Below are positions 15,283 to 33,615 of a stretch of DNA of 64,000 bases, in pieces; position 1 is the first letter of the stretch; each line of letters starts with the position of its first letter. This stretch comes from an uncultured cyanobacterium (GTDB lineage: Bacteria; Cyanobacteriota; Cyanobacteriia; Cyanobacteriales; Cyanobacteriaceae): NCBI GenBank assembly GCA_963710605.1, contig CAVQBA010000006.1, positions 448,001-512,000 of the forward strand, in the 5' to 3' direction. The position numbers and the translations under genes are program-made. The notes beneath the pieces are model-generated. The model was not told the DNA's origin and made no database searches. It saw only the letters and a program-made list of their open reading frames with translations.

Positions 15283-15750
15283 ATGGATAGAGAAAAACTT
15301 TTGAAAAAACGAAATAAATTAAAAGCTAAAATCTATACTTCTGTCCGTATTGGCTTAATTAGGGAACTCATTAATTATCTCGACAGCAAGAAAGTTGAGT
15401 ACAACCTACATTTAGAATGCGATCGTGTTTTCAAAAAATATCCCACTAATTTTTCAGGTTTAAACTGGGGAATTATTCCTAATTCCCAACTGATTCATTA
15501 CCACACTATAGAGCAAAGAAATCAAATTATATCTAACGCCCTAACTGAGTATTTGAATAAGTCAGATCGGGTTTTTGTAGTTTGGAGCAATGGATTAACA
15601 CCTATATTAGAGTTATCTGTAAAGCAACTTATGGATAATATTGAACCTATTGTTAATGAAGATTTCGATATGTGGATTTTGCAGTTAGAAAAAGGGTTTT
15701 GTCTGGAGCATTATCACGAAGGATATGTAGCTTGGACAATTAACTCATAA
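15283..15750 (+). CDS. Hypothetical protein resembling CDI/polymorphic-toxin immunity proteins
   Basis: Intact 155-aa ORF; C-terminal DFDMWI...FCLEHYHEG pattern recalled from CdiI-like proteins (not searched). Confidence 0.5.
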   Translation: MDREKLLKKRNKLKAKIYTSVRIGLIRELINYLDSKKVEYNLHLECDRVFKKYPTNFSGLNWGIIPNSQLIHYHTIEQRNQIISNALTEYLNKSDRVFVVWSNGLTPILELSVKQLMDNIEPIVNEDFDMWILQLEKGFCLEHYHEGYVAWTINS

Positions 15751-18514: not shown

Positions 18515-20273
18515 CTAGAAAGTGAAGGTTAACCTTAATGTACCAATTACCACATCAGGATTTCGAGAAGATTGATTAGGTGCAGTTAACCAGATAACAC
18601 CAGGAGTTAAAGAAATATTATTTGTCATTTTGTGAATGTAAAATGCCTCAATATGCCAAGGAATAGAATTTCCGGCAATTAAATCTGTATAATCATCTCC
18701 TAAATCTGACCCAAACCAATTACCTCCAGTACGATAAACTTCGGGAACTTCTGCTTTGCTTGCGTAGGGTGATGCTCCCACTACAATACCTCCTAAATTA
18801 CCTTCTTTAAACAAGTCTGGAAATGCAAAAGCAATTCCATAGGTTAAGATATCGGCTTTACTACCTTGATATTCCACTAGATTAAATGCGTCTGTACCAC
18901 CTGAAGTATTAACCTGATTATAGGCAAACCAACCATTTACAGCAAACTTAGGACTTAATTCCCATAAAGCTTGGAGACCATAGGAATTAACATTTACTTG
19001 TTGAGTCGGAACTACAGGGAAATTTGCTAAAGTCGTTCCCTGATCGTTGAAAAAAATCGGTAAACTGTTAAAAGGAGTTTCTACAGAATGGTAGCTATGG
19101 CTATAGGTTAAACCAAAGGAAAAATTATCGCTCGGTTGAACGGTTAATTGTGCTAAGGCTGAGTATCTACCATTAAATAACCCTCCTGCAAAGGGATTAC
19201 TTGCGTCTGGACTGCTAGGATTATTAGCATAAGTAGCTAAGTAACCCGCACTGAGGCTAATACTGTCGCTAAAATTATAGGTGACACCGATACCCGAATC
19301 CTATATAGTTATAAATTGCACTACGTTGTCCAAAAACCGAAAGAGAGCCTGTACCTCCATTATCGTCATCCCAACTACTAAAGGTGGTGGGTACATAGTC
19401 GTGGTGTTCTCCTCCTGTACCCATGATTACAACTTCAGCTTTATCCCCGATCGGAAATTGATAGCTTAATTCAGTTATCCCGACTGAATTATCACCAGGT
19501 AAATCGGCAATATCGTTAAAAGTTTGTTGAGCTTCAGAAGAAAAAGCTAAACCTCCTTGATACCCCCGTAAAGGGTTAGGTTCCATATTGAAATCCCCCG
19601 GACGATTAGGATGGGGAAAATTACCACTAGTCAGACGAATTTTGAGTCGATCTTGACCTGTAAAACTGGTGATTAAATCCAAACGAACTCGGTTAGCAAA
19701 AACAGTTTGTTGACTAGGATTGTCTATATCTATATTTCCCGTAGGACTAAAAATAGCAGGAAAAGTTGAGGTTGAATCATCTCCTGCTAAAACATCTGTT
19801 ATGGCAAAAATAACTTCCCCTTGTAATTTGGTGGTGGTGGAAAATTGATTATCTTCTAAGAACGCTACTCTGCCTTCTAGGTTATCAACTCTTGCACCTA
19901 AAGCGGCTAATTCTGCTTCAAATTCAGTAACTAAACGCTGTAGTGTGGCTACATCTTCTCTTAATACTGACTCGCTACCTGCGATTAAACGCTCCATTTG
20001 TTGCATACAAGCATTTAAACCTGCGGCAAATTCGTAACGGCTTAAAGCACGATTGCCACGGAAGGTACAATCTGGGTAACCGACAATACAACCGTAACGT
20101 TCCACTAAACTTGTTAAAGCTTCGTAAGCCCAATCTGTAGGGGATACATCTCTTAACTGGGATACTGAGTTAACTTGGTTGAGTTTATTCTCTTCTAACT
20201 CAATAGCGATCGCTCCTTCTATATTCCAAAGCAACGATAATCCTAAGATTACCTTAATACTAGGCTTCCACAT
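18515..20273 (-). CDS. SLH-domain OprB-type outer membrane porin (iron-uptake porin family); 1-nt insertion near 19298
   Basis: Signal peptide, SVSQLRDVSPTDWAYEALTSLVERYGC SLH domain, NQFSTTTKLQGE, terminal GTLRLTFTF; AGGAG before ATG 20273; frame restored by GATTC to GATC. Confidence 0.9.
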
Positions 20274-20406
20274 AAATCTCCTCACTAAATAATTATGATA
20301 ATGATTCTCATTATTTTTAATAGTAATATAATAATGGTAATCATTATCATTTTTTTAAGAGAACCAATGATTGAATTTTCTCAATGGTATAGAGGTCTTA
20401 ACTTAC
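20206..20406. repeat. Copy 1 of a ~200-bp direct repeat (porin 5' end, divergent promoter, lanM 5' end)
   Basis: Near-identical to 21209-21409; both begin at HIP1 GCGATCGC. Confidence 0.95.
20297..20348. promoter_or_regulatory. Two Fur boxes
   Basis: GATAATGATTCTCATTATT (20297-20315, 16/19) and AATAATGGTAATCATTATC (20330-20348, 17/19) against GATAATGATAATCATTATC. Confidence 0.8.
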
Positions 20407-20483
20407 AGGAACGACAAATCTTACTTGAACAAAACGAGTTTGATGAAGCTGAGAAGGTAATCTTTTTTGATAAAGGGTGATCG

Positions 20484-20906
20484 CTATCTCGTCCAATCTT
20501 CTACACGAGCAATACCAATACTGACAAAATCATTAACATTAACCGTAATTATGGTCAATTTATTAGCATTGGCAATAGCGGCAATACGACAGTCTTGTGT
20601 ACCAATTCTTTTTATTTTGGCAGGAAGTAACTGATAAATGCTTTCAGCTTCTGGGGTATAAGACAAAATTTGAAAGTGATGTAGTGCAACAAATAAGTCT
20701 TCAAAATATTGGTAAGCATAGGTTACAGATGATTTTCTTTTGACTTTTTGCACAGAGGCTAAAGCACCTTGTAATATCTCTTCAACGGTAATAATGCTAA
20801 TGAAAATTTGTTCAGGTGGTTGACTCAAAATTTTAGCTGTTAGTTGAGGATAGTAACGTCTCTCATCCAAGAAATTACTAACAACACTAGTATCCAGAAG
20901 GTACAT
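20484..20906 (-). CDS. vapC: PIN-domain VapC toxin
   Basis: MYLLDTSVVS, ITVEE, DCRIAAIA, TVNVNDF, VEDW. Confidence 0.92.
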   Translation of the reverse strand: MYLLDTSVVSNFLDERRYYPQLTAKILSQPPEQIFISIITVEEILQGALASVQKVKRKSSVTYAYQYFEDLFVALHHFQILSYTPEAESIYQLLPAKIKRIGTQDCRIAAIANANKLTIITVNVNDFVSIGIARVEDWTR

Positions 20907-21097
20907 TAATCTTGTTTGTCCGATTTAAGATCTAAAAGCTTTTTTGTTTCTTCTCTATCTATTTTGCGACAATGTTTAATTTCTGACTGCGTAAAATGCC
21001 AAAATTCTCCTCCAAACTTACCAGCGATATTAATTAAAGGGTTATCAATTACTTGTTTTTTTTCAGACTGTTTGTGAGAAATTTTATTTTCCATCAT
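20906..21097 (-). CDS. Putative antitoxin of VapC
   Basis: 63-aa ORF overlapping the vapC start by 1 nt (TAATG coupling). Confidence 0.65.
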   Translation of the reverse strand: MMENKISHKQSEKKQVIDNPLINIAGKFGGEFWHFTQSEIKHCRKIDREETKKLLDLKSDKQD

Positions 21098-21208
21098 TTT
21101 GCCCGTAACTGTTGCTTGTAATGTTCATTATAGTTTAAACAGTTGGTCAGTACGATCGAATTTTAGAAGAGTTTGGAGTACGATCGCCTTTTTGTCGAGG
21201 TGAGAGGT

Positions 21209-21409
21209 GCGATCGCTCCTTCTACATTCCAAAGCAACGATAATCCTAAGATTACCTTAATGCTAGGCTTCCACATAAATCTCCTCACTAAATAATTATG
21301 ATTATTATTCTCATTATTTTTAATAGTAATATAATAATGGTAATCATTATCATTTTTTTTGGAGAACCAATGATTGAATTTTCTCAATGGTATAGAGGAC
21401 TTAATTTAC
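21209..21409. repeat. Copy 2 of the ~200-bp direct repeat
   Basis: Offset 1003 bp from copy 1; holds a dead-end porin start and the real lanM start. Confidence 0.95.
21333..21351. promoter_or_regulatory. Fur box upstream of lanM
   Basis: AATAATGGTAATCATTATC (17/19), 18 nt before the lanM ATG; neighbouring box at 21300-21318 is only 14/19. Confidence 0.8.
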
Positions 21410-24400
21410 GTGAAAGAATAACTTTACTAGAAAAAATCAAGACCACAGATTTCGACTTAGCCGATCGTCATCTCCAGCGTTGGCGATCGCAAAAACCTTT
21501 GACAGATGAGAATTATTATGCACAGAAATTGTCCCAAGAGGGATTAACAGAGAATGAATTTATGAGGATATTGGGGGAATCAGATGATTCTTTAGCCCAA
21601 CGTTGTGCTAGTCCAGATTGGTTAGATAAGTTAATTCAAGATTTTGAGGTTGAAGAGATTGCTAAGGTGAAGATTGCCCCTGTAGAAACTTTAAGCGACA
21701 ATCGATTAAATTTAGGGTTTTTGCATTTAGTGAAACCATTATTAAATCAAGCCCTAGTAAGTTTAGAGGTAGGAATCGAAAAATTAGGAAAAAATACTCC
21801 CTTCGCCCCAGAGAAAATTAAGGGAATTTTATCGGCTAAAATTCCAGAGCAATTATTGGGAATAGTTAGTCAAACAATGGTTTTAGAGTTAAATGTTGCC
21901 AGATTAGAAGGAAAATTATTGGGAGAAACTACGAGGGAACGTTTAATCGATTTTCTGCACAAATTAGAGCAAAAACAATCTTCTTTAGAGATACTTCAAG
22001 AATATCCAGTCTTAGCACGACAAATAGTGATTTATCTAGAACAGTGGGTAGAAGTAAGTTTAGAATTTTTAGAGCGTCTTTGTCAGGATTGGGAACTAAT
22101 TTGCGATCGCTTTAGTGGTGATTCTCCCCTTGGTATGTTAGTGAAAATACGATCGGGTGCAGGAGATTCCCATAAAAAAGGGCGATCGGTTTTTATTTTA
22201 GAATTTAGTTCTGGATTAAAACTAGTTTACAAACCCAAATCTTTAGGGATAGACGAGCATTTACAAGAGTTACTAATCTGGTTAAACCAACAAGGATTAG
22301 AGTTGCCATTTGCGATCTTAAAGATACTTAATCGAGGTGAGTATGGCTGGGTAGAATTTGTCGAAGCCAAAAGTTGTACCTGTATCGAGGAAGTTGAGCG
22401 ATTTTATCAACGAATGGGCAGTTATTTGGCTTTGATGACAGCTTTAGAAGCAACGGATTTTCACCTGGAGAATATTATCGCCCGTGGGGAAACTCCTGTT
22501 TTGATTGATTTAGAAACCCTATTTCGTCCCGAACGTCTCGATCGTAATTCCCCAGAATCTCGTTTAATAGCGAATCAAAAAATAGGTCAATCGGTGATGG
22601 CAGTAGGATTATTACCACAGAGAATAGCGGTCAAAGATGGTTCAGGGGGTTTTGATTCTAGCGGATTAGGTGCAGTGGGAGGTCAAGTTCTACCCACTCG
22701 TACTGCTGAATTAACAGGGATGGGAACGGATCGAATGCAAGTAGAACGAAAGTTTGCGACTTTATTAGAGAGTCAAAATCTTCCTTATTTAGGAGAAAAA
22801 CCTGTGGAAGTCTGGACTTATCGAGAGAATATTGAAGCAGGATTTATTGAAACTTATCGCTTATTACTAAACCATCGAGATTTATTCCTAAAACTTTGGC
22901 TACCTAAATTTGCTAATGACGAAATTAGGGTAGTTTTGCGAGATACAAGGTTATATGGATTATTATTACAAGAGAGTTTTCACCCCGATGTTTTAAGAAA
23001 TGCCCTCAATCGCGATCGCCTTTTCGATCGTCTTTGGATTGATGTTCCTAATCACCCTAGTTTAGCAAATGTGATTCGATTGGAACAAAAAGCTCTTTGG
23101 CAAGGAGATGTACCTTTCTTTTCTACTCAGGTAAATAGTCGAGATATTTGTGGAGAAGGGGAAAAACTCAGTAATTTTTTTGATAAATCAGGCTTAGAAC
23201 GAGTAAAAAATCGATTTAAACGTTTAAGTGAAAAGGATTTAGAAGAACAACTCTGGTTTATCAGAACATCGTTAACCAGTTTAGCCATGTCGGTGTCAAC
23301 TAAACCTAAAAAAATAACAGATAAGGTGCAAGAATCAGAAAAAATTGAGAATTGGGAACTACTTCAAGCTCGATTATTAGCAACATCTGAGAAGATTGCC
23401 TCTCGTTTGGAATCGTTAGCAATTCGAGCCGAAAATCAAGCAAGTTGGATTGGTTTAACTTCAGCAGGAGAAAAACATTGGACAGTCAAACCCTTAGCTT
23501 GGGATTTATTTGGCGGACTTCCCGGAATTGCTCTATTTTTTGCCTATTTAGGAGAAGTCACCCAAAAACAAAAGTACACCAAATTAGCGAAAGATACCTT
23601 AGAAACTATCTTAATTCAGACCGATTTCGATCGAGATTTAATCACTTCTGTGGGGGGTTTTGATGGCTGGGGAGGAATTATTTATACTCTTACCCATTTA
23701 GGAAATTTGTGGCAACAACCAGAATTAGGCGATTTGCTTGCAGCAGCGCTTCGCTCCCGTGCTTTAGCATTGGTCAAAAAATTATCTCCTCTAATTGCTA
23801 AAGATGAACAATTAGATATTGTAGCTGGTTGTAGTGGCTGTATTTTAGCTCTAATTAATCTCTACGATTGGGTTCAAGATGAAAATATTAAAACTGTGGC
23901 AATTCAATGTGGCGATCGCTTAATTGAAAAAGCCATTACCATGAAAAAAGGAATCGGATGGGGGACAATTGCCAATCAAAAACCTCTGAGTGGTTTTTCT
24001 CACGGAGTTGCGGGTATTTCTCTAGCTTTATTAAAATTAGCCACTTTTACAGGAGATGAACGTTATCAAAAAATAGCTCTAGAAGCATGGGAATACGAAC
24101 GTAGTCTTTTTTCTGTTACCGAAAAAAATTGGCACAATAGCGAACAAGACCAAGAAAACTTGGCAGTTGCTTGGAGTTATGGAGCAACAGGAATTGGTTT
24201 AGCCCGTTTAGGTAGTATTTCTCAGGTAAAAACAACGCAAGTTAATTTAGAAATTAATATAGCGATGGAAACTACCATAGCGTCGGGTTTTGGTAATAAT
24301 CATTCCCTCTGTAATGGAGATTTAGGTAGTTTAGAACTACTCCTACAAGCAATCAGCACCAAATCTCAACCCGAACTTACCCATACTTATTACCAAAAAA

Positions 24401-24582
24401 TTAACCAAGTACTTAATAGCATCGAACAACAAGGTTGTTATTGTGGAGTTCCCTTGGGGGTGGAAACGTTAGGATTAATGACGGGTTTAGCTGGTATTGG
24501 TTACCAACTAATTCGTTTAGCATTCGCCGATCGTATTCCTTCTTTATTATTACTTGAATCTCCCCTCAATCGCAAAATATGA
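21370..24582 (+). CDS. lanM: Class II lanthipeptide synthetase LanM (intact dehydratase, atypical cyclase)
   Basis: GDSH, YKPKS, TDFHLENIIA, IDLETLF, GLLP, RVVLRDTRLY; LanC-like GFSHGVAG and GLMTGLAGIG; GGAGA before ATG 21370. Confidence 0.93.
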   Translation: MIEFSQWYRGLNLRERITLLEKIKTTDFDLADRHLQRWRSQKPLTDENYYAQKLSQEGLTENEFMRILGESDDSLAQRCASPDWLDKLIQDFEVEEIAKVKIAPVETLSDNRLNLGFLHLVKPLLNQALVSLEVGIEKLGKNTPFAPEKIKGILSAKIPEQLLGIVSQTMVLELNVARLEGKLLGETTRERLIDFLHKLEQKQSSLEILQEYPVLARQIVIYLEQWVEVSLEFLERLCQDWELICDRFSGDSPLGMLVKIRSGAGDSHKKGRSVFILEFSSGLKLVYKPKSLGIDEHLQELLIWLNQQGLELPFAILKILNRGEYGWVEFVEAKSCTCIEEVERFYQRMGSYLALMTALEATDFHLENIIARGETPVLIDLETLFRPERLDRNSPESRLIANQKIGQSVMAVGLLPQRIAVKDGSGGFDSSGLGAVGGQVLPTRTAELTGMGTDRMQVERKFATLLESQNLPYLGEKPVEVWTYRENIEAGFIETYRLLLNHRDLFLKLWLPKFANDEIRVVLRDTRLYGLLLQESFHPDVLRNALNRDRLFDRLWIDVPNHPSLANVIRLEQKALWQGDVPFFSTQVNSRDICGEGEKLSNFFDKSGLERVKNRFKRLSEKDLEEQLWFIRTSLTSLAMSVSTKPKKITDKVQESEKIENWELLQARLLATSEKIASRLESLAIRAENQASWIGLTSAGEKHWTVKPLAWDLFGGLPGIALFFAYLGEVTQKQKYTKLAKDTLETILIQTDFDRDLITSVGGFDGWGGIIYTLTHLGNLWQQPELGDLLAAALRSRALALVKKLSPLIAKDEQLDIVAGCSGCILALINLYDWVQDENIKTVAIQCGDRLIEKAITMKKGIGWGTIANQKPLSGFSHGVAGISLALLKLATFTGDERYQKIALEAWEYERSLFSVTEKNWHNSEQDQENLAVAWSYGATGIGLARLGSISQVKTTQVNLEINIAMETTIASGFGNNHSLCNGDLGSLELLLQAISTKSQPELTHTYYQKINQVLNSIEQQGCYCGVPLGVETLGLMTGLAGIGYQLIRLAFADRIPSLLLLESPLNRKI
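23729..23754. repeat. In-frame 18-nt SDR5-like insertion in a HIP1 site inside lanM
   Basis: GCGATTTGCTTGCAGCAGCGCTTCGC, GC-rich, with HIP1 halves at both ends. Confidence 0.65.
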
Positions 24583-26725
24583 AATATCAGGTTATCCTTC
24601 AACATAATGAAGAAGATTGCGGTGCCGCTTGTTTAGCCACTTGTGCCAAATATTACGGTCAAATTTTTTCCCTCCATCGAGTTCGTGAGGTAGCAGGTAC
24701 AGGAGCTTTAGGCACTACTTTATTAAATCTTAAACAGGGGGCAAAAACTCTTTTATTTGATGCTAAGGGGGTGAAAGTTCCCCTCGAATTAATCGATCGA
24801 CAAATAATTCCTTTACCCGGTATTATTCACTGGCAAGGTATTCATTGGGTCGTTTTATACGGCAAAAAAGGTCGCAAATATGTGGTGGCAGATCCAGCCG
24901 TAGGCTTGCGTTATCTATCCAAACCAGAATTATTAAAAGGTTGGACTAATGGAGCGATGTTATTACTTGAACCTCGCCCTGAATTTTCTCACCAACTTGA
25001 CGATCGTCATAAAATTAATAATTATCAACGTTTTTTAGCTTATTTCTCGCATAAAAAGCGTCTTTTAGGGCAAGTTTTTTTGCTGAACTTGATGATTGGG
25101 ATTTTAGCTTTAACTTCCCCCTTTTTCTTACAAATTCTCACCGATGAAGTATTAGTTACCCAAGATATAACACTGCTTAATGGGGTAATTATTGCTGTTT
25201 TTATCTCTAATTTATTTAGAAGTAGTCTTAGGTTTATCCAATCCTATTTAGTAACCCATTTTTCCCAAGGTTTAGAACTTAGTTTGGTTTTAGAATTTTG
25301 CCGTTCAATTTTATTTCTGCCTTTAGCCTATTATGAATCCCATCGTAGCGGGGAAGTAGCCAGTCGTTTGCGAGATATCCAAGCAGTTAATCAACTTGTA
25401 TCTCAAGCTTTAATCCTATTACCTAGTCAATTATTTATTGCTTTAATTTCTTTAATTTTAATTTTTATATACAATCATAATCTCCTTTTTATTACCTTAA
25501 TTATTGCCATAATTATGTGTGCTTCTACTTTAATTTTTTGGAATCGAATTAAGAAGAAAACACAAAAGCTTTTAGCCTTGACAGCAGAAAATCAAGGAAT
25601 TTTAGTGGAAACTTTTAAGGGTGCAATTGTGATGAAAACTAAAAATGCTACTTCTCAATTTTTAGATGAATTTCAAGCTAGATTTGGTCGGCAAGCGAAA
25701 ATTAATTTTCAACGATCGCAAATTGCTATCTTTAATTCCACTTTTTCTGGTTTTATTTTATGGACTGGAGAAGCGATTCTACTTTGGTTTGGCAGTCAAC
25801 TGGTTTTTCAAGGCAATTTAACCATCGGTCAATTAGTTGCCTGTAATATCATGAGTAAAAACGGCTTGAGTTTTATTATTTTAATTATCGATTTTGTGAA
25901 CCAGTTAGTTTTTGTCCAATCAGCCTTAGAACGTTTGGGTGATGTCATTGATGCTACCCCCGAAGTTCAACCCAATCAAATTAAACCTAGGGTTAAATTA
26001 TTAGCCAATAGCGATATCTTAGTTGCCATGATTTAACTTTTAATCATCCTGGTAGAGTGGAACTACTCCATAATTTTAATCTTACTCTCCCTGGAGGGAA
26101 AGCGATCGCTTTGATTGGTGAATCGGGTTGTGGTAAATCAACATTAGCTAAATTGATCGCACGGTTATATTTTCCTCAAACTGGACAAATCCGCATCGGT
26201 GATTATAACCTCAATGATTTAGCCCTCGATTCTATTCGAGAACAAATTGTTTTAATTCCCCAAGAAACTCACTTTTGGAGTCGATCGATTATTGACAATC
26301 TCAGCTTAGGTAACGAGGCGATCGATTTTGCCACAATTGTTCGAGCTTGTAAAATTGCTCAAGCAGATGAATTTATTAGTAAACTTCCTAATCAATATCA
26401 AACTATATTAGGAGAATTTGGTGCCAACCTTTCTGGTGGACAAAGACAACGACTTGCCCTCGCCCTTGGTATTGTTACTAATCCGCCAATTTTGATCCTT
26501 GATGAATCTACTGCTAATCTCGATCCAGTTTGTGAAGCTGAAGTTATCGATCGTCTTCTTGATTATCGTCAAGGTAAAACTACAATTTTGATTAGTCATC
26601 GCCCTCAAGTCATTACCCGTGCTGATTGGATCGTCTTTTTGGAAGTGGGCAAAGTAAAACGACAAGGAACACCACAGCAACTATTTTCTCAATCGGGTTC
26701 TCATCTTAATTTTTTGACTCCTTAA
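24579..26725 (+). CDS. lanT: C39 peptidase-containing ABC exporter (LanT type); apparent frameshift near 26015
   Basis: QHNEEDCGAACL, HWVV, TM domain, GESGCGKS, LSGGQ, LDE; GATATC to GATC restores SDLSCHDLTFNHPGRVELL. Confidence 0.9.
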
Positions 26726-26760
26726 AAAAACTGCAAAAATAATTCCTTATTTCAAGACTC

Positions 26761-26789
26761 GTAGGGACGTAGCATTGCTACGTCCCTAC
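26761..26789. repeat. GTAG-type REP palindrome
   Basis: gtagggacgtagca-t-tgctacgtccctac, a perfect 14-bp inverted repeat. Confidence 0.85.
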
Positions 26790-26801
26790 TTAAAAAACTG
26801 C

Positions 26802-26837
26802 AAAAATGATAATCATTCTCAAAAAATACTGTATAAT
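26802..26837 (+). promoter_or_regulatory. Fur box and TATAAT -10 element upstream of lanA
   Basis: AAAAATGATAATCATTCTC (26802-26820, 16/19); TATAAT at 26832-26837; GAGGT RBS before 26886. Confidence 0.72.
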
Positions 26838-26885
26838 ATTTGCAGGACTGAAAAGTCTCCATAACTAAAAAATAACGAGGTAAAA

Positions 26886-27125
26886 ATGTCTAATATTGAT
26901 ATTATTCGTGCTTGGAAAGATGAAGATTACCGTAACAGTTTAAGTCAAGAACAATTGAATCTCTTGCCAGAAAATCCTGCGGGGATGATTGAATTAAACG
27001 ATGAAGATATGTCTTCACTTTCAGGAGGTTGTACTACCTGTACTGGTGGAACTGGATTTACCCATACCTGTAATTACTCTTGCAAAAGAGGAACTCTTGA
27101 TAGTGACGAAATGACTATTATGTAA
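26886..27125 (+). CDS. lanA: Mersacidin/lichenicidin-type leader lanthipeptide precursor
   Basis: Leader IIRAWKDEDYRNSLS...LPENPAG..ELNDEDM...GG (48 aa); 31-aa core CTTCTGGTGFTHTCNYSCKRGTLDSDEMTIM. Confidence 0.93.
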   Translation: MSNIDIIRAWKDEDYRNSLSQEQLNLLPENPAGMIELNDEDMSSLSGGCTTCTGGTGFTHTCNYSCKRGTLDSDEMTIM

Positions 27126-27190
27126 AAAAAATTCACCATCAGGAAAGCAAGAAGATTTGTCCAGCTAATTACTTTCCCTAGATGAATTTC

Positions 27191-27222
27191 AGGAGACCTA
27201 GAATTTATTTCTGGGTCTTGCC
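27191..27222 (+). terminator. Stem-loop downstream of lanA (terminator or RNA stabiliser)
   Basis: agacctagaa-ttta-tttctgggtct imperfect hairpin; no clear U-tract. Confidence 0.4.
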
Positions 27223-27257
27223 CCTAGATATAATTATAGAGAAGTCTAGATTTATTA

Positions 27258-28670
27258 ATGATTAATTTCGATGAAAAAGCTCTTTTACCAACTATTTCTG
27301 AGGAAGAATTTTTACCCTCCATTAGTCTTTGGTTGAGTTTAGGAGGGCTGGTTTTAGCTACTACGATCGTTTCAGCTTTTATTTTAGCGGCTGTGACTAG
27401 ATATAAGGTTACAGTTAAAGCGATCGCTACAGTTCGTCCCGAAGGAGAAATACAAATTGTAGAATCCACTCAAGAAGGCACTGTTAAAACCATTGAGGTT
27501 AAAGAAAATCAATTTGTGCAAACGGGGGAAACAATAGCCCTTCTAGATAAGTCCCAATTGCAACTTAAAAAATTACAGTTACAGGGTTCTTTGGAGAAGT
27601 TAAATCAACAACAAAGCCAGATTAATCAACAAATTGTGGCTTTAGATCGTCAATTGATGGCAGAAACAGAGAAATATAATCGTATTGTCCTTTCTCTTGA
27701 AGCTCAATTAGCTGGTCAAAAACGTGAATATGACGATCGTCAATCTACCACGGAAAAGGATTTAGAAGAAGCCCAAGCTGATATCAGACGAACAGAAGCA
27801 GAATTAAAAATATCCTACGCCCGTTTAGCTGCTGCCAAAGCCGATTTAAAAGCCGAGCAAGAAAGATTGAAACGATATGCCCCCTTGACTGAAGAAGGAG
27901 CAATTTCCCAAGAGCAATTGATGGAAATCAAGCTCGGTGTGGAACAAAAAGAACAAAATGTTCTGATCCAAATTCAAGAAATTGAAACAGGCAAACAAAC
28001 ACTTCAAATTGCCCAAGGAAAAGGGGAAAAAGCTAAAATTGCTTTAAATCCTAGTAACTCTGAACTAAAAATAACACAACAGGCTATTGCTAGAGAAAAG
28101 GCTGCCCTTATGGCAATACAAGCTGATTTCAAAAGGGAAAAGAATTTATCGATCGGACAAAATATTGAACTACAAAAACAAAGCGATCGTGAAAAATTGG
28201 AATTAAAACAAGTTAAAAAGCAGATTGAGCAAGGGATTATTACCGCTCCGGTTAGTGGTACAGTTCTTAAACTTTTATTACGTAACCCAAGTCAAAGGGT
28301 ACAAGCGGGTACAGAAATTGCTCAAATTTCACCCCAGAATGCTCCTTTAGCTATTAATGCTCAAATTTCGGCGGCTGATATTCATAATCTCGAAATAGGT
28401 CAAACAGCACAAATTAGAATTTCAGCTTGTCCTTATCCTGATTATGGTACTCTTTCAGGGGTGGTTAAAGAAATATCTACAGATACTTTTATCAGTAATA
28501 ACCAATCCTTTTATAAAGCTATTATTGCACCACAAAATAATGTTTTTGGTAATACCGACTCGCCTTGCATTTTACAAGCTGGAATGGAGGGGGATGTTGC
28601 TATTGTGACCAAAGAAGAGACTTTTTTAGTATTTATTTTGAGGAAAGCACGATTGGTTACAGATTTTTAA
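27258..28670 (+). CDS. HlyD-family membrane fusion protein
   Basis: N-terminal TM, VKENQFVQTGE and ITAPVSGTV hairpin halves, long coiled coil, CPYPDYGTLSG, LQAGMEG. Confidence 0.92.
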   Translation: MINFDEKALLPTISEEEFLPSISLWLSLGGLVLATTIVSAFILAAVTRYKVTVKAIATVRPEGEIQIVESTQEGTVKTIEVKENQFVQTGETIALLDKSQLQLKKLQLQGSLEKLNQQQSQINQQIVALDRQLMAETEKYNRIVLSLEAQLAGQKREYDDRQSTTEKDLEEAQADIRRTEAELKISYARLAAAKADLKAEQERLKRYAPLTEEGAISQEQLMEIKLGVEQKEQNVLIQIQEIETGKQTLQIAQGKGEKAKIALNPSNSELKITQQAIAREKAALMAIQADFKREKNLSIGQNIELQKQSDREKLELKQVKKQIEQGIITAPVSGTVLKLLLRNPSQRVQAGTEIAQISPQNAPLAINAQISAADIHNLEIGQTAQIRISACPYPDYGTLSGVVKEISTDTFISNNQSFYKAIIAPQNNVFGNTDSPCILQAGMEGDVAIVTKEETFLVFILRKARLVTDF

Positions 28671-28783: not shown

Positions 28784-30607
28784 CTATTTTCGGTTGGTTT
28801 GTTGTGGTTGTCTGTGGAGAGTTTTTACTTGTTGTGGAGGGTTGTTGTTAGTTGAAGAATCAGCACTGACAATAGCACGATTCTTTTGTTTTTTTGATCT
28901 ACTTACCAAACTCCATATATCGATAAGTATCTCTAAATATTCTTGGTGTTTTTGCTCAACTGTTGGTAGATTCCATTCGTTTTCATTAATTATTTTAATC
29001 GTGATGGGGAAAATTGTCGGATTAGTGTCTTTGAAATATTTTGTTTTTTTCTTTTCAAAATCGTAATTTTGTGCCGAAGAATTCTTTTTTCTGGAAAGTA
29101 ATGCTAAATTACCAACTCGATGTACCCATTTTGCTCTTGTTTTATCATCCCAATTTTTGCACCAATCACTATTAGGCTTAGGATTTTGTGGTAACACGTG
29201 TTCGATCGTTACCATTTTACTATCAAAACTAGGACTTAATCCACCTTCAGCTAAAGCCGAATCTAATCTCTTTAAGACATAAAGACGACTACGAGTTTGC
29301 TCATACAAATTACTATCAAGAATTTTAATTATTTTCTTTTTTTCTGGTGTTGATAACAGTTGTTTGGTTTTAGCTATCGCTTCTTCTATTCCTTGATCAA
29401 TCGCATTTAAAATTTGAGCATAACGTTTTCCTCTTTCATTAATATCTGCTCGTAAAATCATCAATCCTGCGGCGAGTCTTTCTAGTTGCTGAAAAAAAGT
29501 TTTAATTTGTTGAGAGTGATTGTAAGATTTTGCTAAAAAATAAATAGCAGGAGGTAACCAATCAGAATTATCTATCTGATTTAACCAGCCAAAAAGTCGA
29601 TTTATTTCTTGTTTATTTTGATTATTATTACAATGAAATCTTTGATCTCTAATAATTTCAAACATCTTAGAACAAGGTTTTAAAACTCGATCGATAAACC
29701 GAATTGGATCATTTTGAGGTTTAATTTTGTGGCGAAATTCTGTTAGTAAATTTTCTTTAGGTCTTTCCCTTAATTTGATACGATGAATATGAGAAAATAA
29801 AGTTTCAAAATCTTTTCTACCTATATCACTTTCTTCTCCTTCCCAAATATCGGTATATTTTTTCTTATCTGCTTCAACTTGAATATTACCGATAATTTCT
29901 GACTTGAGAATATCATTTAATTGTAAATTTAAACCACGAGTATTAATAGTTGAAAAAATACGATAAGCTGTATCAAAATCAGAAGTTGAAACAACAACTA
30001 AATAACATTTATTAAAGATGTTTTTAAATAGATGTAAAATCCATGATTCTAAAGCCGTATTCTCAGGACAACGATCGATTAATTCTTCTTTAAAAAAACG
30101 AGCATTATTTTGGAGTAAAATTTGACTATCTGTAGTTAATCCTGTGTCTATTTCTTCTTTTTCTAGAAGTTGATTAATGCCACCGCCACTACGTATTTTT
30201 TCGCCGAAAAATCGATCGTCTTGAGGGCGTAATTTTAAACCAGATAAGTTTTTTTCATTGAAATCTTCATCTTCAAGACAAGCACTTATTTTTTGATAAA
30301 TTTTATTTTCCCTTGGTACTAAGTAACGAAACACAGATAGTAAAAGTGTTAAAGTGGTTAAACGTTGTTGACCATCAATTACTTCTGCGTAGGGTTTGCC
30401 ATCCTCTTTAATTAAAATAATACTGCCAAAAAAGTAGTCTGGACTATCTTCATCAGTATAAGGAAAAGCATCTAAAAGATCATCAATTAATTCGGAGGCT
30501 TGATCTTTTGTCCAAGCATAAGGGCGTTGATAAGAGGGTATTTCAAATTGATAATTAGTTAAGTTGAAAATTTGATTAAGTTGTTTTTGAGATGCTTGAA
30601 TCGCCAT
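28784..30607 (-). CDS. DUF262-DUF1524 protein (GmrSD/SspE-like nuclease)
   Basis: IPSYQRPYAW, IDGQQRLTT, FSTINTRG, EHVLPQ...GNLALL...N (HNH). Confidence 0.9.
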   Translation of the reverse strand: MAIQASQKQLNQIFNLTNYQFEIPSYQRPYAWTKDQASELIDDLLDAFPYTDEDSPDYFFGSIILIKEDGKPYAEVIDGQQRLTTLTLLLSVFRYLVPRENKIYQKISACLEDEDFNEKNLSGLKLRPQDDRFFGEKIRSGGGINQLLEKEEIDTGLTTDSQILLQNNARFFKEELIDRCPENTALESWILHLFKNIFNKCYLVVVSTSDFDTAYRIFSTINTRGLNLQLNDILKSEIIGNIQVEADKKKYTDIWEGEESDIGRKDFETLFSHIHRIKLRERPKENLLTEFRHKIKPQNDPIRFIDRVLKPCSKMFEIIRDQRFHCNNNQNKQEINRLFGWLNQIDNSDWLPPAIYFLAKSYNHSQQIKTFFQQLERLAAGLMILRADINERGKRYAQILNAIDQGIEEAIAKTKQLLSTPEKKKIIKILDSNLYEQTRSRLYVLKRLDSALAEGGLSPSFDSKMVTIEHVLPQNPKPNSDWCKNWDDKTRAKWVHRVGNLALLSRKKNSSAQNYDFEKKKTKYFKDTNPTIFPITIKIINENEWNLPTVEQKHQEYLEILIDIWSLVSRSKKQKNRAIVSADSSTNNNPPQQVKTLHRQPQQTNRK

Positions 30608-31438: not shown

Positions 31439-31740
31439 TAGATCTAAAATTATTAATTTAAAATTGAGAATTAAATAGGACTATTAATTATTAAATATTG
31501 ACGATTAGATTATAACTAATATTATAATCATGAAATGTATCCTTTAGATTTAAAGGGATTAGACTATATCTTTATCTCACAAGCCTGATAGATTGCATTT
31601 GACTAAGCAAGGTTGAGAATGCGAGGTATTAATTTGTCTAACGTTAAACTAAAGCTAAATAGCAAGAATCTCAAAATAATATTAAATAGTTGATCAATTC
31701 TATTATGATTTAAACAGTTGAAACAACAAGTAAGTTGCTG

Positions 31741-33615
31741 ATGAGTAATTGGAAAAAAGGAACACAATTAAATGATGGTCAATACGTCATTGAATCTATT
31801 TTACTAAGAGATGGCTATGGGTTATTTTATCGTGCAAAAGATACTTTAAACGATCGATTAGTAACTATCAACACTACAAAAATAGCAGAATATCAAACAA
31901 CAAATCTCCAACAACTTCAAGATAGATTAATACAACAAGCTCAGCAAATAGCTGATAATTGTCAAAATTCTTATATTATTCAACTCAAACCAGAAGTTTT
32001 TTGGGACGAAGATCATATTTATATGGTGATGGATTATCCAGATGGTGAAGATTTAGCGACTTATCTTGATAATAACGGTCAAATTCCCGCAGAAGAGGTA
32101 TTAAATATCATCACTAAAATTGCTTCGGCTTTAAATTTACTTCACCAAAGCAAAGTATTACATCAAGATATCAAACCACAGAATATAATTATTGATTCAC
32201 AAACACAAAATCCTGTTTTAATCAATTATGGTATGGCAATCAAATTATTTACCATTACATCACGCAAAAACGCTAATAATATCAATGATTGTTTTCTACC
32301 TCCAGAAAAGTTTAATGAGAAAAAAAAGTTAGGTATTGGTAGTGATGTATATTCAATTGCCGCCACGGCTTACACATTAGCAACAGGGCAATTACCAACT
32401 TCAGCTTATCTGAGGGTTAAACAACAATTACCTTTAATCCCTCCTCAGCAACTTAATCCTAGTTTAAGCGATCGTTTTAATCAAGCAATTATTAAAGGGA
32501 TGGATTTAGATTTAAAACAACGTCCACAATATCTTAAAGATTGGTTAGATTTATTCAAAGAAAAACAAAAGCTATCACAATCACAATATGAAACTCTTGA
32601 TGATTTACCTACAGATATCAGTGACATACCTCCAGAAAACCTAGCTATTTTCAATGCCATAGTCAACAATGATGAAACAATCGTTCAAAGAGTAAGTTCA
32701 AATGTTGCCCCCCCAACAATTACTAATCGAGAAAAGAATTACCCCAATATTGAAAAATACACTTTTGAAACCATAGAAATAGAGGAAAAAAAAGGGTTTT
32801 TTAGTTTGTTTCCTAAACAGAAGAAAAAGACAAATACTAGTGAAGGACAATTTTTTGTTGAGTATTTAGGTACAGGAGTTAATTTAGAAATGATTTTTAT
32901 TCCTGCCGGTACAATGATGATGGGAGGAAACAAAAACGAAAAAGGAAAAGATAAAAACGAAAATCCCCAGCATTTAGTTAATCTTAAATCTTTTTATATT
33001 AGTAAATACCCGATTACTCAAAAACAATGGCGAATCGTTTCTCGTTTCCCCAAAATTACTCGTAATTTAAAACAAAAACCTTCTTTTTTTAGAGGCGATA
33101 ATCTACCTGTAGAAAGAATTTCTTGGCTAGATACTCAAGAATTTAGTAAAAGAATTAGTAAGTATAGTGGGCGTACTTATCGTTTACCAACAGAATCGGA
33201 ATGGGAATATGCTTGTCGAGGTAATACAACAACGGCTTTTTTCTTCGGGGAGACAATGACTCCTGAATTTGCTAATTATGATCAAAGTAGTAATACTCGT
33301 AATAATCAACAAAATCTTAAGACTAATACGAAAAAAACTACCTCAGTAGATAATTATTATCCTAATCCATTCGGTATCTATGATTGTCATGGTAATGTTT
33401 GGGAATGGTGTGAGGATAATTATGTTGACAATTATCTATCTCATCCTATTGATGGCTCAGCTTATTATGCCCCTAATGATAATCCTGAACGAGTTGTTCG
33501 TGGTGGCTCTTGGTCGTTACCTGCATATTACAGTCGTAGCTCTCGTCGTAATGGTTACATCACTGATTCTACTTATAATTTTATTGGTATGCGAATAGTT
33601 TGTGTTCTTGATTAA
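31741..33615 (+). CDS. Ser/Thr kinase-like domain fused to an FGE-sulfatase (SUMF1) domain
   Basis: HQDIKPQNI, SDVYSIAAT; RLPTESEWEYACR, HGNVWEWC, VVRGGSW. Confidence 0.88.
   Translation: MSNWKKGTQLNDGQYVIESILLRDGYGLFYRAKDTLNDRLVTINTTKIAEYQTTNLQQLQDRLIQQAQQIADNCQNSYIIQLKPEVFWDEDHIYMVMDYPDGEDLATYLDNNGQIPAEEVLNIITKIASALNLLHQSKVLHQDIKPQNIIIDSQTQNPVLINYGMAIKLFTITSRKNANNINDCFLPPEKFNEKKKLGIGSDVYSIAATAYTLATGQLPTSAYLRVKQQLPLIPPQQLNPSLSDRFNQAIIKGMDLDLKQRPQYLKDWLDLFKEKQKLSQSQYETLDDLPTDISDIPPENLAIFNAIVNNDETIVQRVSSNVAPPTITNREKNYPNIEKYTFETIEIEEKKGFFSLFPKQKKKTNTSEGQFFVEYLGTGVNLEMIFIPAGTMMMGGNKNEKGKDKNENPQHLVNLKSFYISKYPITQKQWRIVSRFPKITRNLKQKPSFFRGDNLPVERISWLDTQEFSKRISKYSGRTYRLPTESEWEYACRGNTTTAFFFGETMTPEFANYDQSSNTRNNQQNLKTNTKKTTSVDNYYPNPFGIYDCHGNVWEWCEDNYVDNYLSHPIDGSAYYAPNDNPERVVRGGSWSLPAYYSRSSRRNGYITDSTYNFIGMRIVCVLD

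Follow-up and report, generated by a model that had tools for sequence, protein, structure and literature searches.

A conserved porin and class II lanthipeptide module of cyanobacteria that is probably controlled by Zur

A porin encoded divergently from a lanthipeptide cluster, with Fur-type boxes at the promoters on both sides, raises two questions: which metal governs the locus, and what the modified peptide does. The original prediction was of a metal-scavenging circuit, or else an iron-triggered weapon or signal, with iron starvation inducing both a secreted peptide and an uptake porin through Fur. The window analysed here is a 64-kb stretch of contig CAVQBA010000006.1, in which genes were called with Pfam and NCBIfam profiles. 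All five genes of the predicted set, porin, lanM, lanT, lanA and hlyD, are recovered by these profiles and are arranged as follows:

18515–20273 (ORF to 20285), minus strand: SLH and OprB outer-membrane porin (por_somb, NF033921; 315 and 166.7 bits, cut-off 100)
21298/21370–24582, plus strand: lanM, class II lanthipeptide synthetase with DUF4135 dehydratase and LanC-like cyclase (TIGR03897; 964.1 bits, cut-off 304)
24579–26725, plus strand: lanT, C39 peptidase/ABC exporter (Pfam/NCBIfam)
26761–26789, no strand: hairpin with a perfect 13-bp stem between lanT and the lanA promoter (read off the sequence directly)
26886–27125, plus strand: lanA precursor (TIGR03898; 71.8 bits)
27258–28670, plus strand: hlyD-family membrane-fusion protein of the exporter (Pfam/NCBIfam)

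The porin probably starts at the ATG at 20273, which is preceded by AGGAG, and its family, NF033921, is labelled 'iron uptake porin' by NCBIfam. LanA carries a mersacidin/lichenicidin-type leader ending in GG, followed by the core CTTCTGGTGFTHTCNYSCKRGTLDSDEMTIM. Consistent with the predicted lack of immunity genes, the 13 ORFs scanned from 15 to 33 kb match no LanI/LanFEG-type family.

The claimed head-to-head arrangement of porin and lanM stands as a divergent pairing but not as strict adjacency, since a VapC gene and a small ORF intervene, bracketed by a direct repeat:

20206–20438, no strand: left 233-nt copy, with the 5′ end of the porin, the intergenic region and, from the ATG at 20367, a dead fragment of the lanM 5′ end (92% identity to the right copy)
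20484–21097, minus strand: inserted toxin–antitoxin pair of VapC (PIN) and an upstream 63-aa ORF (Pfam/NCBIfam)
21209–21441, no strand: right 233-nt copy, running from a dead fragment of the porin 5′ end through the working lanM promoter region into the 5′ end of lanM (repeat comparison)

VapC occupies 20484–20906 and the 63-aa ORF, which has no family match, 20906–21097; the pair is missing from the closest intact locus (genome G486). Each repeat copy thus corresponds to porin 5′ end, intergenic region and lanM 5′ end, and the module of this genome is a modified one, in which the VapBC cassette and the duplication part the porin and lanM promoters. Additionally, the assembly carries a +1 frameshift in the porin near 19297–19298, seen in alignments with L025 and G486, and a +2 insertion near 26014–26017 that splits lanT, a single unbroken gene in relatives, into pieces 24579–26036 and 26012–26725. 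The zur-like gene is likewise frameshifted, and with all three genes so affected the module may be inactive here.

Candidate operators were located by scoring Fur-type 19-mers against the E. coli consensus and by scoring the 7-1-7 motif TGATAATNATTATCA out of 14. The 19-mers predicted to match at 16–17/19 before porin, lanM and lanA are present at 20297 (16/17), 20330 (17/16), 21333 (17/16) and 26802 (16/15), and the only other 16/19 site in the window is at 33349. These cluster boxes are 7-1-7 palindromes that match TGATAATNATTATCA at 13/14:

20296–20310, no strand: Zur-type 7-1-7 box TGATAATGATTCTCA (13/14) on the porin side (motif scan)
20335–20349, no strand: Zur-type box TGGTAATCATTATCA (13/14) in the left repeat copy (motif scan, repeat analysis)
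26807–26821, no strand: Zur-type box TGATAATCATTCTCA (13/14), 65 nt upstream of lanA (motif scan)

The box at 20296 overlaps the predicted porin −10 element and forms with that at 20335 an inverted pair of 21-mers, while the right repeat copy carries boxes at 21299 (12/14) and 21338 (13/14). Because the 233-nt segment is duplicated around VapBC, box 21333 duplicates box 20330, so the cluster holds three independent boxes. A 15-mer identical to box 26807 also lies upstream of lanA in G047 and G080. Promoter-like hexamers such as those that the boxes overlap occur no more often than in shuffled sequence.

The cluster motif is that of published Zur-binding sites of Anabaena, such as TGATAATCATTATCA (alr3242), TGATAATCATTATCG (all3515) and similar sites given in Table S3 of PMC10957091. 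In the genome's own DNA, an operon of znuA, Metallophos_2, an unknown gene and a Fur-family gene (the znuA-zur operon) is directly preceded by overlapping boxes, and 7-1-7 boxes also precede a COG0523 gene. Relatives give a similar picture. All four perfect genome sites in G023 lie at znuA, COG0523/znuCB, SufE-COG0523 and a TfuA-YcaO locus adjoining the cluster, and both perfect sites in G255 lie inside the cluster. The sole perfect site in G486 is in the porin–lanM gap, accompanied by six with one mismatch that include lanA, znuA, COG0523 and a Metallophos_2 operon; five of these seven best sites are at zinc genes or at the cluster. The metal of the module is thus probably zinc rather than iron, with Zur in control. 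For Anabaena, co-regulation of znuAB by FurA is reported (PMC4005646), so iron cross-talk may occur.

Conserved porin–lanM–lanA synteny with boxes, proposed as a check on the prediction, is found elsewhere. A box of at least 13/14 is present in the porin–lanM gap of 17/17 mapped porin-linked lanM loci, which are not independent, as a single change on the LanM tree accounts for the porin/box label. Before lanA, such a box occurs in 8 of the 12 loci where both lanT and hlyD are visible, and none of 16 related lanM loci lacking the porin has a box of at least 13/14. Porin-less lanM clusters adjoin a boxed znuA in G045 and G137, and a boxed hemB (ALAD) paralog lies near the cluster in G051, G255, G519 and G346. 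Moreover, the porin ortholog tier (at least 514 bits) is found in 19 of 401 genomes of the order, and all 19 carry lanM or its remnants, either adjacent or, in the fragmented G047 and G668, on another contig. Together, these patterns point to a module of porin and class II lanthipeptide that is conserved, horizontally moving and probably Zur-controlled.

Our preferred reading, held with moderate confidence, is of a horizontally acquired Zur-regulon module in which the SLH/OprB porin diverges from a class II lanthipeptide operon, lanM-lanT being followed by lanA-hlyD from a separate promoter. When zinc is sufficient, Zn-Zur would bind the 7-1-7 boxes overlapping the porin, lanM and lanA promoters and repress them; when zinc is scarce, all three would become active. 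LanA would then be dehydrated and cyclised by LanM, cleaved after GG by LanT and exported with HlyD as a peptide of ~24–31 residues whose core in every case has CxxC at its N terminus, His-Thr and, further on, another Cys, while the porin would raise the zinc permeability of the outer membrane.

That the module is instead an iron-scavenging circuit of peptide and porin under FurA appears unlikely. The boxes do match the E. coli Fur 19-mer at 16–18/19, the porin family bears its iron label, and an iron-induced porin of the por_somb family in Synechocystis 6714 has two Fur boxes within a bidirectional promoter (PMC8634477). The window boxes are hybrids, with one half-site, TGAGAAT/ATTCTCA, known also in cyanobacterial Fur boxes. 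Against this, the cluster boxes are unlike the Fur boxes of Synechocystis and fit the Anabaena FurA consensus at only 10–14/19, a background level given 40 sites of at least 14/19 in the 64-kb window alone. The E. coli 19-mer itself scores 17/19 at the genome's own znuA and 12/19 at its own furA, and no site of at least 12/14 lies near the starts of that furA or of four other por_somb paralogs. The isiA-like genes of four relatives have only weak TGAAAAA-type sites, and none of the perfect G023 or best G486 sites is at a recognised iron gene, the one G486 site that adjoins an ExbB gene being compatible with iron or zinc uptake. The forecast of Fur-family repressor sites shared by all three promoters is supported, and that of iron as the metal is not. 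A still more sceptical account, in which the boxes are chance matches in an AT-rich genome (33% GC) around an ordinary unregulated lantibiotic cluster, is very improbable. Sites of 12/14 do number 203 genome-wide against ~86 expected, and about half of the 28 genome sites at 13/14 outside the cluster fall within ORFs. However, 4 of the 32 genome-wide 13/14 sites (~3.7 expected per genome under a first-order Markov model) lie within ~6.5 kb, and boxes keep the same promoter positions at 17/17 related loci despite LanM identity falling to ~45%. Across 282,864 nt of locus DNA, 19 of 40 boxes of at least 13/14 fall in porin–lanM gaps (6,418 nt), 10 in lanT–hlyD gaps (10,933 nt) and 11 elsewhere, an enrichment of ~70-fold over the remaining DNA.

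Zur control could also be real while the peptide, released under zinc starvation, works as an antimicrobial, a competition factor or a signal, and the porin is a zinc-influx channel that merely shares the promoter region; we regard this as possible but less likely. It would suit the mersacidin/lichenicidin-family leader, export by a standard C39-ABC exporter with HlyD, and the fact that G346 keeps porin and perfect box beside a mere lanM remnant, so the porin can be kept alone. Porins also offer a poor path for a peptide of 2.5–3 kDa. Yet no immunity genes are present among the ORFs scanned, the cores lack the Glu-Cys motif that we take to mediate lipid II binding in this family, and the occurrence of lanM or remnants with every porin ortholog suggests more than a shared promoter. 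Across nine type-A LanAs, C1, C4, His, Thr and one later Cys do not vary, CxxC and His are invariant in box-linked cores, and His occurs in 16/16 of these versus 9/25 cores from box-less loci. The invariant Cys and His of the core make zinc scavenging plausible. Extracellular zinc capture or buffering (a zincophore-like role) is a serious candidate at somewhat less than an even chance; a zinc-starvation weapon is a little less probable, and a signal or something else accounts for the rest. Several points weigh against a zincophore: lanthipeptide Cys residues are normally consumed in thioether rings, a 2.5–3 kDa peptide is large for a porin, known metallophores enter by TonB-dependent receptors, and the LanM cyclase domain itself requires zinc. 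The presence of a porin in place of such a receptor thus counts against the metallophore idea.

Among known systems, the Zur regulon of Anabaena sp. PCC 7120 was reportedly treated in Napolitano 2012. As presented in Sarasa-Buisan 2024 (PMC10957091, main text and Table S3), that regulon has the same 15-bp 7-1-7 operator, promoter-overlapping and overlapping double sites, and common target types (znuA, COG0523, the ALAD paralog all4725 and secreted or outer-membrane components); neither 'lanthi' nor 'porin' occurs in the main text. According to PMC9705863, Zur regulation was found for none of the Anabaena porin-like genes examined there. The cyanobacterial bacteriocin clusters of group IV (LanM) treated by Wang, Fewer and Sivonen 2011 (PMC3140520), and class II lanthipeptides of the mersacidin/lichenicidin family, have the same parts: LanM, a precursor with a GG leader (TIGR03898), a C39-ABC exporter and HlyD. 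Neither 'porin' nor 'zinc' occurs in that paper. In contrast to those systems, lanA here follows lanT and has a boxed promoter of its own, a porin is inherited along with the cluster, and the cores have invariant CxxC, His-Thr and Cys. D082_28000 of Synechocystis sp. PCC 6714 belongs to the same porin family and has twin Fur-family boxes in a bidirectional promoter that also regulates its neighbour, but it is iron-responsive (PMC8634477), its box is aaattgaaagctattctcaattg rather than of TGATAAT type, and the neighbour is an ankyrin gene, not lanM.

No published description of a porin and lanthipeptide module was found, and the retention of this pairing by several cyanobacterial families may reflect an as yet undescribed response to scarce zinc. 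We know of no lanthipeptide metallophore. Zur-controlled zincophore loci, such as those for staphylopine/pseudopaline (cnt) and [S,S]-EDDS, share with the module the logic of placing biosynthesis, export and outer-membrane uptake under a zinc repressor, but their products are small opine or aminocarboxylate chelators rather than ribosomal peptides, and in Gram-negative bacteria these chelators enter through a TonB-dependent receptor instead of a porin. Methanobactins and bufferins are metal-regulated ribosomal peptides in which modified Cys-derived groups bind metal; they differ in binding copper and in being made by MbnBC/DUF692-type enzymes instead of LanM.

The module at 18515–28670 consists of an SLH/OprB porin gene divergent from four lanthipeptide-type genes, whose products were assigned as follows.

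minus strand: porin with SLH and OprB domains; por_somb (NF033921) matched in two pieces at 315 and 166.7 bits, SLH at 26 bits, with further OprB matches
plus strand, likely start ATG 21370 with GGAGAA ahead: lanM; TIGR03897, 964.1 bits (cut-off 304)
plus strand: lanT; C39, ABC_membrane and ABC_tran domains all found, frame split by a +2 insertion
plus strand: lanA, precursor of 79 aa; TIGR03898, 71.8 bits (cut-off 23.5), mersacidin/lichenicidin-type leader
plus strand: HlyD-family protein, from Pfam/NCBIfam scans

LanM is bifunctional, joining a dehydratase domain (DUF4135, 422.8 bits) to a cyclase domain (LANC_like, 229.2 bits; both Pfam), and the LanA leader ends in GG, followed by the core CTTCTGGTGFTHTCNYSCKRGTLDSDEMTIM with four Cys and ten Ser/Thr residues. 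By its predicted synthetase and precursor the cluster is of class II (LanM) lanthipeptide type, for which thioether rings are predicted. The stretch from lanT to the lanA box contains a hairpin with a perfect 13-bp stem and no T-run (GTAGGGACGTAGC...GCTACGTCCCTAC, 26761–26789) that could serve as a terminator or processing site dividing two transcription units. The GC content of the cluster (0.37–0.39) exceeds that of the genome (0.335), in keeping with a foreign-gene island. The flanks encode a CdiI-like immunity protein (15283–15750), a GmrSD restriction enzyme (28784–30607) and a Ser/Thr kinase joined to an FGE-sulfatase domain (31735–33615).

The original prediction read the cluster as a candidate iron-responsive RiPP metallophore system, pointing among other things to 19-mers matching the Fur consensus. 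These 19-mers, of the E. coli Fur type, are indeed present at 20297, 20330, 21333 and 26802, matching at 16–17 of 19 positions, with one other 16/19 site in the 64 kb. The same places carry a 7-1-7 palindrome, TGATAATNATTATCA, scoring 13/14 at 20296, 20335, 21338 and 26807, a pattern that matches published Anabaena Zur sites. Specifically, the Zur-binding sites listed in Table S3 of PMC10957091 include TGATAATCATTATCA (alr3242), TGATAATCATTATCG and TGATTATGATAATCA (all3515), TGATAATAATAATCA (alr4028) and TGAGAATTATTATAA (znuA), and on direct sequence comparison these and the cluster boxes share one motif. The iron-type operators available for comparison are the Anabaena FurA consensus AAATAAATTCTCAATAAAT, as given in PMC4005646, and Synechocystis Fur boxes of the TGAGAAT/TTGCAAAT type, such as taaatgagaatttatagcaacta, as given in PMC8634477. 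Across the promoters of the cluster and six relatives, the FurA consensus fits at 10–14 of 19 positions, which is background (the window alone holds 40 sites of at least 14/19), and the Zur pattern fits at 13–14 of 14 in the same promoter regions. Additionally, matches to the E. coli Fur 19-mer reach 17/19 at the genome's own znuA versus 12/19 at its own furA, so that in this lineage an apparent E. coli Fur box marks Zur targets.

Across the window's own genome, the strongest sites of the palindrome give a mixed picture. The whole 3.93-Mb genome contains 32 sites of 13/14 against about 3.7 expected under a first-order Markov model, and none of 14/14; about half of the 28 outside the cluster fall inside ORFs, the informative one being at a COG0523 gene alone. 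This gene (TGATAATCGTTATCA) belongs to a zinc island on contig 7, together with divergent znuC/znuB and an operon of znuA, Metallophos_2, an unknown gene and a Fur-family gene that is preceded by the overlapping boxes CAATAATGATTATCA and TGATTATCATTCTCA; the znuA sites score 12/14 and were noticed by a targeted look. No comparable site occurs near the starts of furA or of four other por_somb paralogs in this genome. Predicted -35/-10 hexamers of lanM and the porin overlap the boxes, yet are equally frequent in shuffled sequence (6 versus a mean of 5.8).

Iron controls were taken from relatives, since the genome itself yielded no isiA (two PSII-family matches only), no convincing FeoB and no long-chain flavodoxin scoring above threshold. 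The isiA-like genes of four relatives (G023, G051, G047 and G045) show no site of at least 13/14, only weak TGAAAAA-type sites, and one class of znuA paralogs in the same genomes carries boxes of 11–14/14 near the start. The four perfect sites of G023 lie at znuA, at COG0523/znuC–znuB, at SufE–COG0523 and at a TfuA–YcaO pair adjoining the cluster, and both perfect sites of G255 lie within its cluster. In G486, the closest intact relative, seven sites with at most one mismatch occur genome-wide, against one for a reversed-pattern control; they comprise the porin–lanM gap (the sole perfect site), lanA, COG0523, znuA, a flavoprotein/unknown + Metallophos_2 operon, one site beside ExbB and one that is probably chance. 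The part of the original prediction that survives is that metal starvation would induce a secreted peptide together with a porin, as predicted from the operators; iron as the metal does not survive, the boxes being of the Zur motif and the FurA fit at background.

The conserved porin–lanM linkage with boxes, which the original prediction had named as a check, is borne out in other genomes. At E <= 1e-180, LanM orthologs are found in 13 of 401 genomes from a phylum-wide sample and in 40 of 401 sampled within the order; the 19 further genomes of the family to which the window belongs have none. A related-locus search with a single LanM protein as query returned one locus, and loci were mapped by tblastn plus the box pattern. 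The porin is divergent from lanM at 17 loci: the window, locus L025, and those of genomes G051, G023, G255, G213, G207, G215, G080, G409, G486, G494, G473, G519, G666, G460 and G534. All 17 gaps are boxed at 13/14 or better, eleven of them perfectly. The locus DNA totals 282,864 nt and holds 40 boxes scoring 13/14 or better: 19 sit in porin–lanM gaps (6,418 nt), 10 in lanT–hlyD intervals, that is, before lanA (10,933 nt), and 11 in the remaining 265,513 nt, several of these 11 at znuA, ALAD or TfuA–YcaO genes. No box of this strength is found at 16 porin-less lanM loci (L047, L125, L132, L152, L153 and L155–L165). Two lanM clusters without a porin, in G045 and G137, adjoin a boxed znuA.

Searching the order with the G486 porin separates a top tier of at least 514 bits (51–100% identity), present in 19 of 401 genomes, from paralogs of at most 471 bits by a clear gap. 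An intact lanM ortholog accompanies the top-tier porin in 17 of these 19 genomes and adjoins it in 15; in the other two, G047 and G668, lanM lies on a different contig and the porin at a contig end. Of the exceptions, G434 has a lanM with an internal deletion and the same match pattern as L025, with which it was counted once, and in G346 the porin and a perfect box are still there, with lanM/hlyD reduced to a short remnant alongside. Among second-tier paralogs, L197, L199, L201 and L202 carry no box of at least 12/14, and L198 has a single 13/14 site beyond the 3' end of the gene. The alignment of box-linked porins contains no His-rich or other metal-binding insert specific to them. A role for the porin as the outer-membrane duct of the exporter was considered unlikely, because type I exporters pair with TolC-like proteins.

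In a quick IQ-TREE analysis of 37 LanMs, the box-associated proteins form a clade of 16 (SH-aLRT 95) and a separate clade of 5, and a single change suffices to explain the porin/box label on the tree, which indicates that the loci are one lineage rather than independent inventions. This lineage spans eight taxonomic families (f1, f5, f7, f8, f15, f29, f31 and f33) and is otherwise missing from the window's own family, a distribution that speaks for horizontal transfer of the whole unit. Even where LanM identity has dropped to about 45%, the boxes are retained, and this speaks for selection acting on them.

Several further genes stand near Zur-type boxes in these genomes. A TfuA-like protein (~460–480 aa) and a YcaO protein adjoin the porin in G023 (L049:2667–5336), G051 (L048:2917–5520) and G255 (L124:13863–16436), with remnants in L187 and L200. 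In G023 the pair has a perfect Zur-type box ahead of it, and in G051, G255 and G346 it is succeeded by a boxed ALAD (hemB) paralog. This putatively Zur-controlled pair could modify the same peptide or serve a separate zinc-sparing function. A FAD/NAD(P)-binding oxidoreductase (NAD_binding_9, with weak Lys/Orn oxygenase similarity) is Zur-boxed in G051 (L048:13717–14934), where it sits between lanT and lanA, and in G486 (L177:205–1476). A Metallophos_2 phosphoesterase gene and genes for unknown proteins form an operon behind Zur-type boxes in three genomes (L062:3503–5232, L025:3791–6076 and L177:1583–3015); in the window's own genome this set is located inside the znuA–zur operon, and it looks like an undescribed member of the Zur regulon.

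The window copy differs from its relatives by a duplication, an insertion and broken frames. A 233-nt direct repeat (20206–20438 and 21209–21441, 92% identical) flanks an inserted VapC(PIN)/small-ORF pair at 20484–21097, each copy running from ~70 nt of the porin's 5' end through the entire intergenic region to ~70 nt into lanM. The left copy therefore serves the porin and the right copy lanM, and the box at 21333 is a duplicate of that at 20330, so that the independent boxes number three rather than four. Within the inserted pair, the PIN domain scores 45.8 bits with VapC models below their cut-offs, and the upstream 63-aa ORF, which overlaps VapC by one base, has no family match. The HIP1-type palindrome GCGATCGC opens both copies (20206–20215 and 21209–21218) and may have mediated duplication and insertion of the VapBC cassette. 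The G486 locus (LanM 81% and LanT 91% identical) has no insertion, a single intergenic region, and an unbroken porin and lanT. Alignment against G486 and L025 places one extra T near 19297–19298 in the window porin and an extra AT near 26014–26017 in lanT.

Indel errors in the assembly and ongoing gene decay could each account for these breaks. The assembly (7 contigs, 84.9% complete, 3.93 Mb) contains other broken genes, namely a second porin, the sole TonB-dependent receptor (in-frame TGA), znuC and the zur-like gene, which makes assembly error a live possibility; the +2 AT duplication in lanT is unlike a typical homopolymer error. The one sequencing run listed contains 0.07 of the sampled words, as low-depth fragments giving no cover at the frameshifts or across the duplication. 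The module may accordingly be disabled in this genome. On contig 7, the last gene of the znuA operon, a Fur-family member that is presumably zur, is broken across two frames (L062:3103–3502), and znuC (L062:6606–7172) matches just the C-terminal part of ABC_tran. Should the zur break be genuine, this strain would express its Zur regulon constitutively.

The precursor cores share potential ligand residues. In an alignment of nine type-A precursors from porin-linked loci, core C1 and C4, a His-Thr pair and a later Cys are invariant. Two other core types occur in boxed clusters, CTCGSSQCSMPWHHY... in G051, G255 and G023, and ...HTKTCNHCC... and ...GHPVCHTNCSHC... in G137, G045 and a second system of G666, both with His beside Thr or His and several Cys. 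G666 has two adjacent LanM systems (L170:9400–15100), with two perfect boxes after the first lanT, and the second system has a His/Cys-rich precursor core (...HGTSHEETCHTDCEHCGE...) behind 13/14 boxes. With groups defined by genomic context, His is present in 16 of 16 box-linked cores versus 9 of 25 cores from box-less loci, a contrast for which the hand-calculated Fisher value of ~2e-5 is overstated because the loci are related; a comparison by motif-defined core types was circular and was replaced by this grouping. Lantibiotics of the mersacidin/lichenicidin group have a conserved CTxTxEC-like lipid II-binding ring in the core. A Glu-Cys motif occurs in none of the aligned type-A cores, and the likeness to this group is confined to the leader. 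Of 256 leader homologs in the database, nearly all are unnamed or called just "mersacidin/lichenicidin family type 2 lantibiotic", and none bears the name of a characterised compound.

On the observed parts and operators, with their conservation and linkage, a working scheme can be placed in which zinc-bound Zur would repress the three promoters, zinc starvation would induce the porin, LanM/LanT and LanA/HlyD, and the peptide would be cleaved at GG and then exported. A part in zinc capture or buffering is the favoured role for the peptide, tentatively and at clearly less than an even chance, owing to the type of regulator, the conserved ligand-type residues, the absence of immunity genes among the scanned ORFs and the linkage to znuABC. 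The fuller proposal is bolder and rather doubtful: the mature peptide might be the first lanthipeptide-type (RiPP) zincophore, secreted under Zur control, binding Zn(II) through its conserved N-terminal CxxC and His, possibly with the free amino terminus, and working with a dedicated, co-inherited SLH/OprB porin as a horizontally spread, TonB-independent zinc route.

Lanthipeptides are treated almost solely as antibiotics or morphogens, and for most of those from cyanobacteria no role is known. A lanthipeptide operon that is conserved, co-inherited with a porin of its own and predicted to be among the top-affinity targets of the zinc repressor offers a testable physiological context for them. 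Full-text searching, with subscription literature and bioRxiv supplements outside its reach, returned no paper tying a lanthipeptide to Zur or zinc in cyanobacteria, and a 2011 survey of cyanobacterial bacteriocin clusters mentions neither a porin nor zinc (PMC3140520). If the peptide binds zinc, it would represent a new chemical class of metallophore. For zinc homeostasis in cyanobacteria the module would be a further arm at the outer membrane and outside the cell, where TonB-dependent receptors and ZepA are the only components known so far. Its biosynthesis and export genes lie under predicted metal-repressor sites, with boxes preceding lanM–lanT and lanA–hlyD. Metallophore systems have a dedicated outer-membrane receptor, usually TonB-dependent, whereas the co-inherited protein here is a porin.
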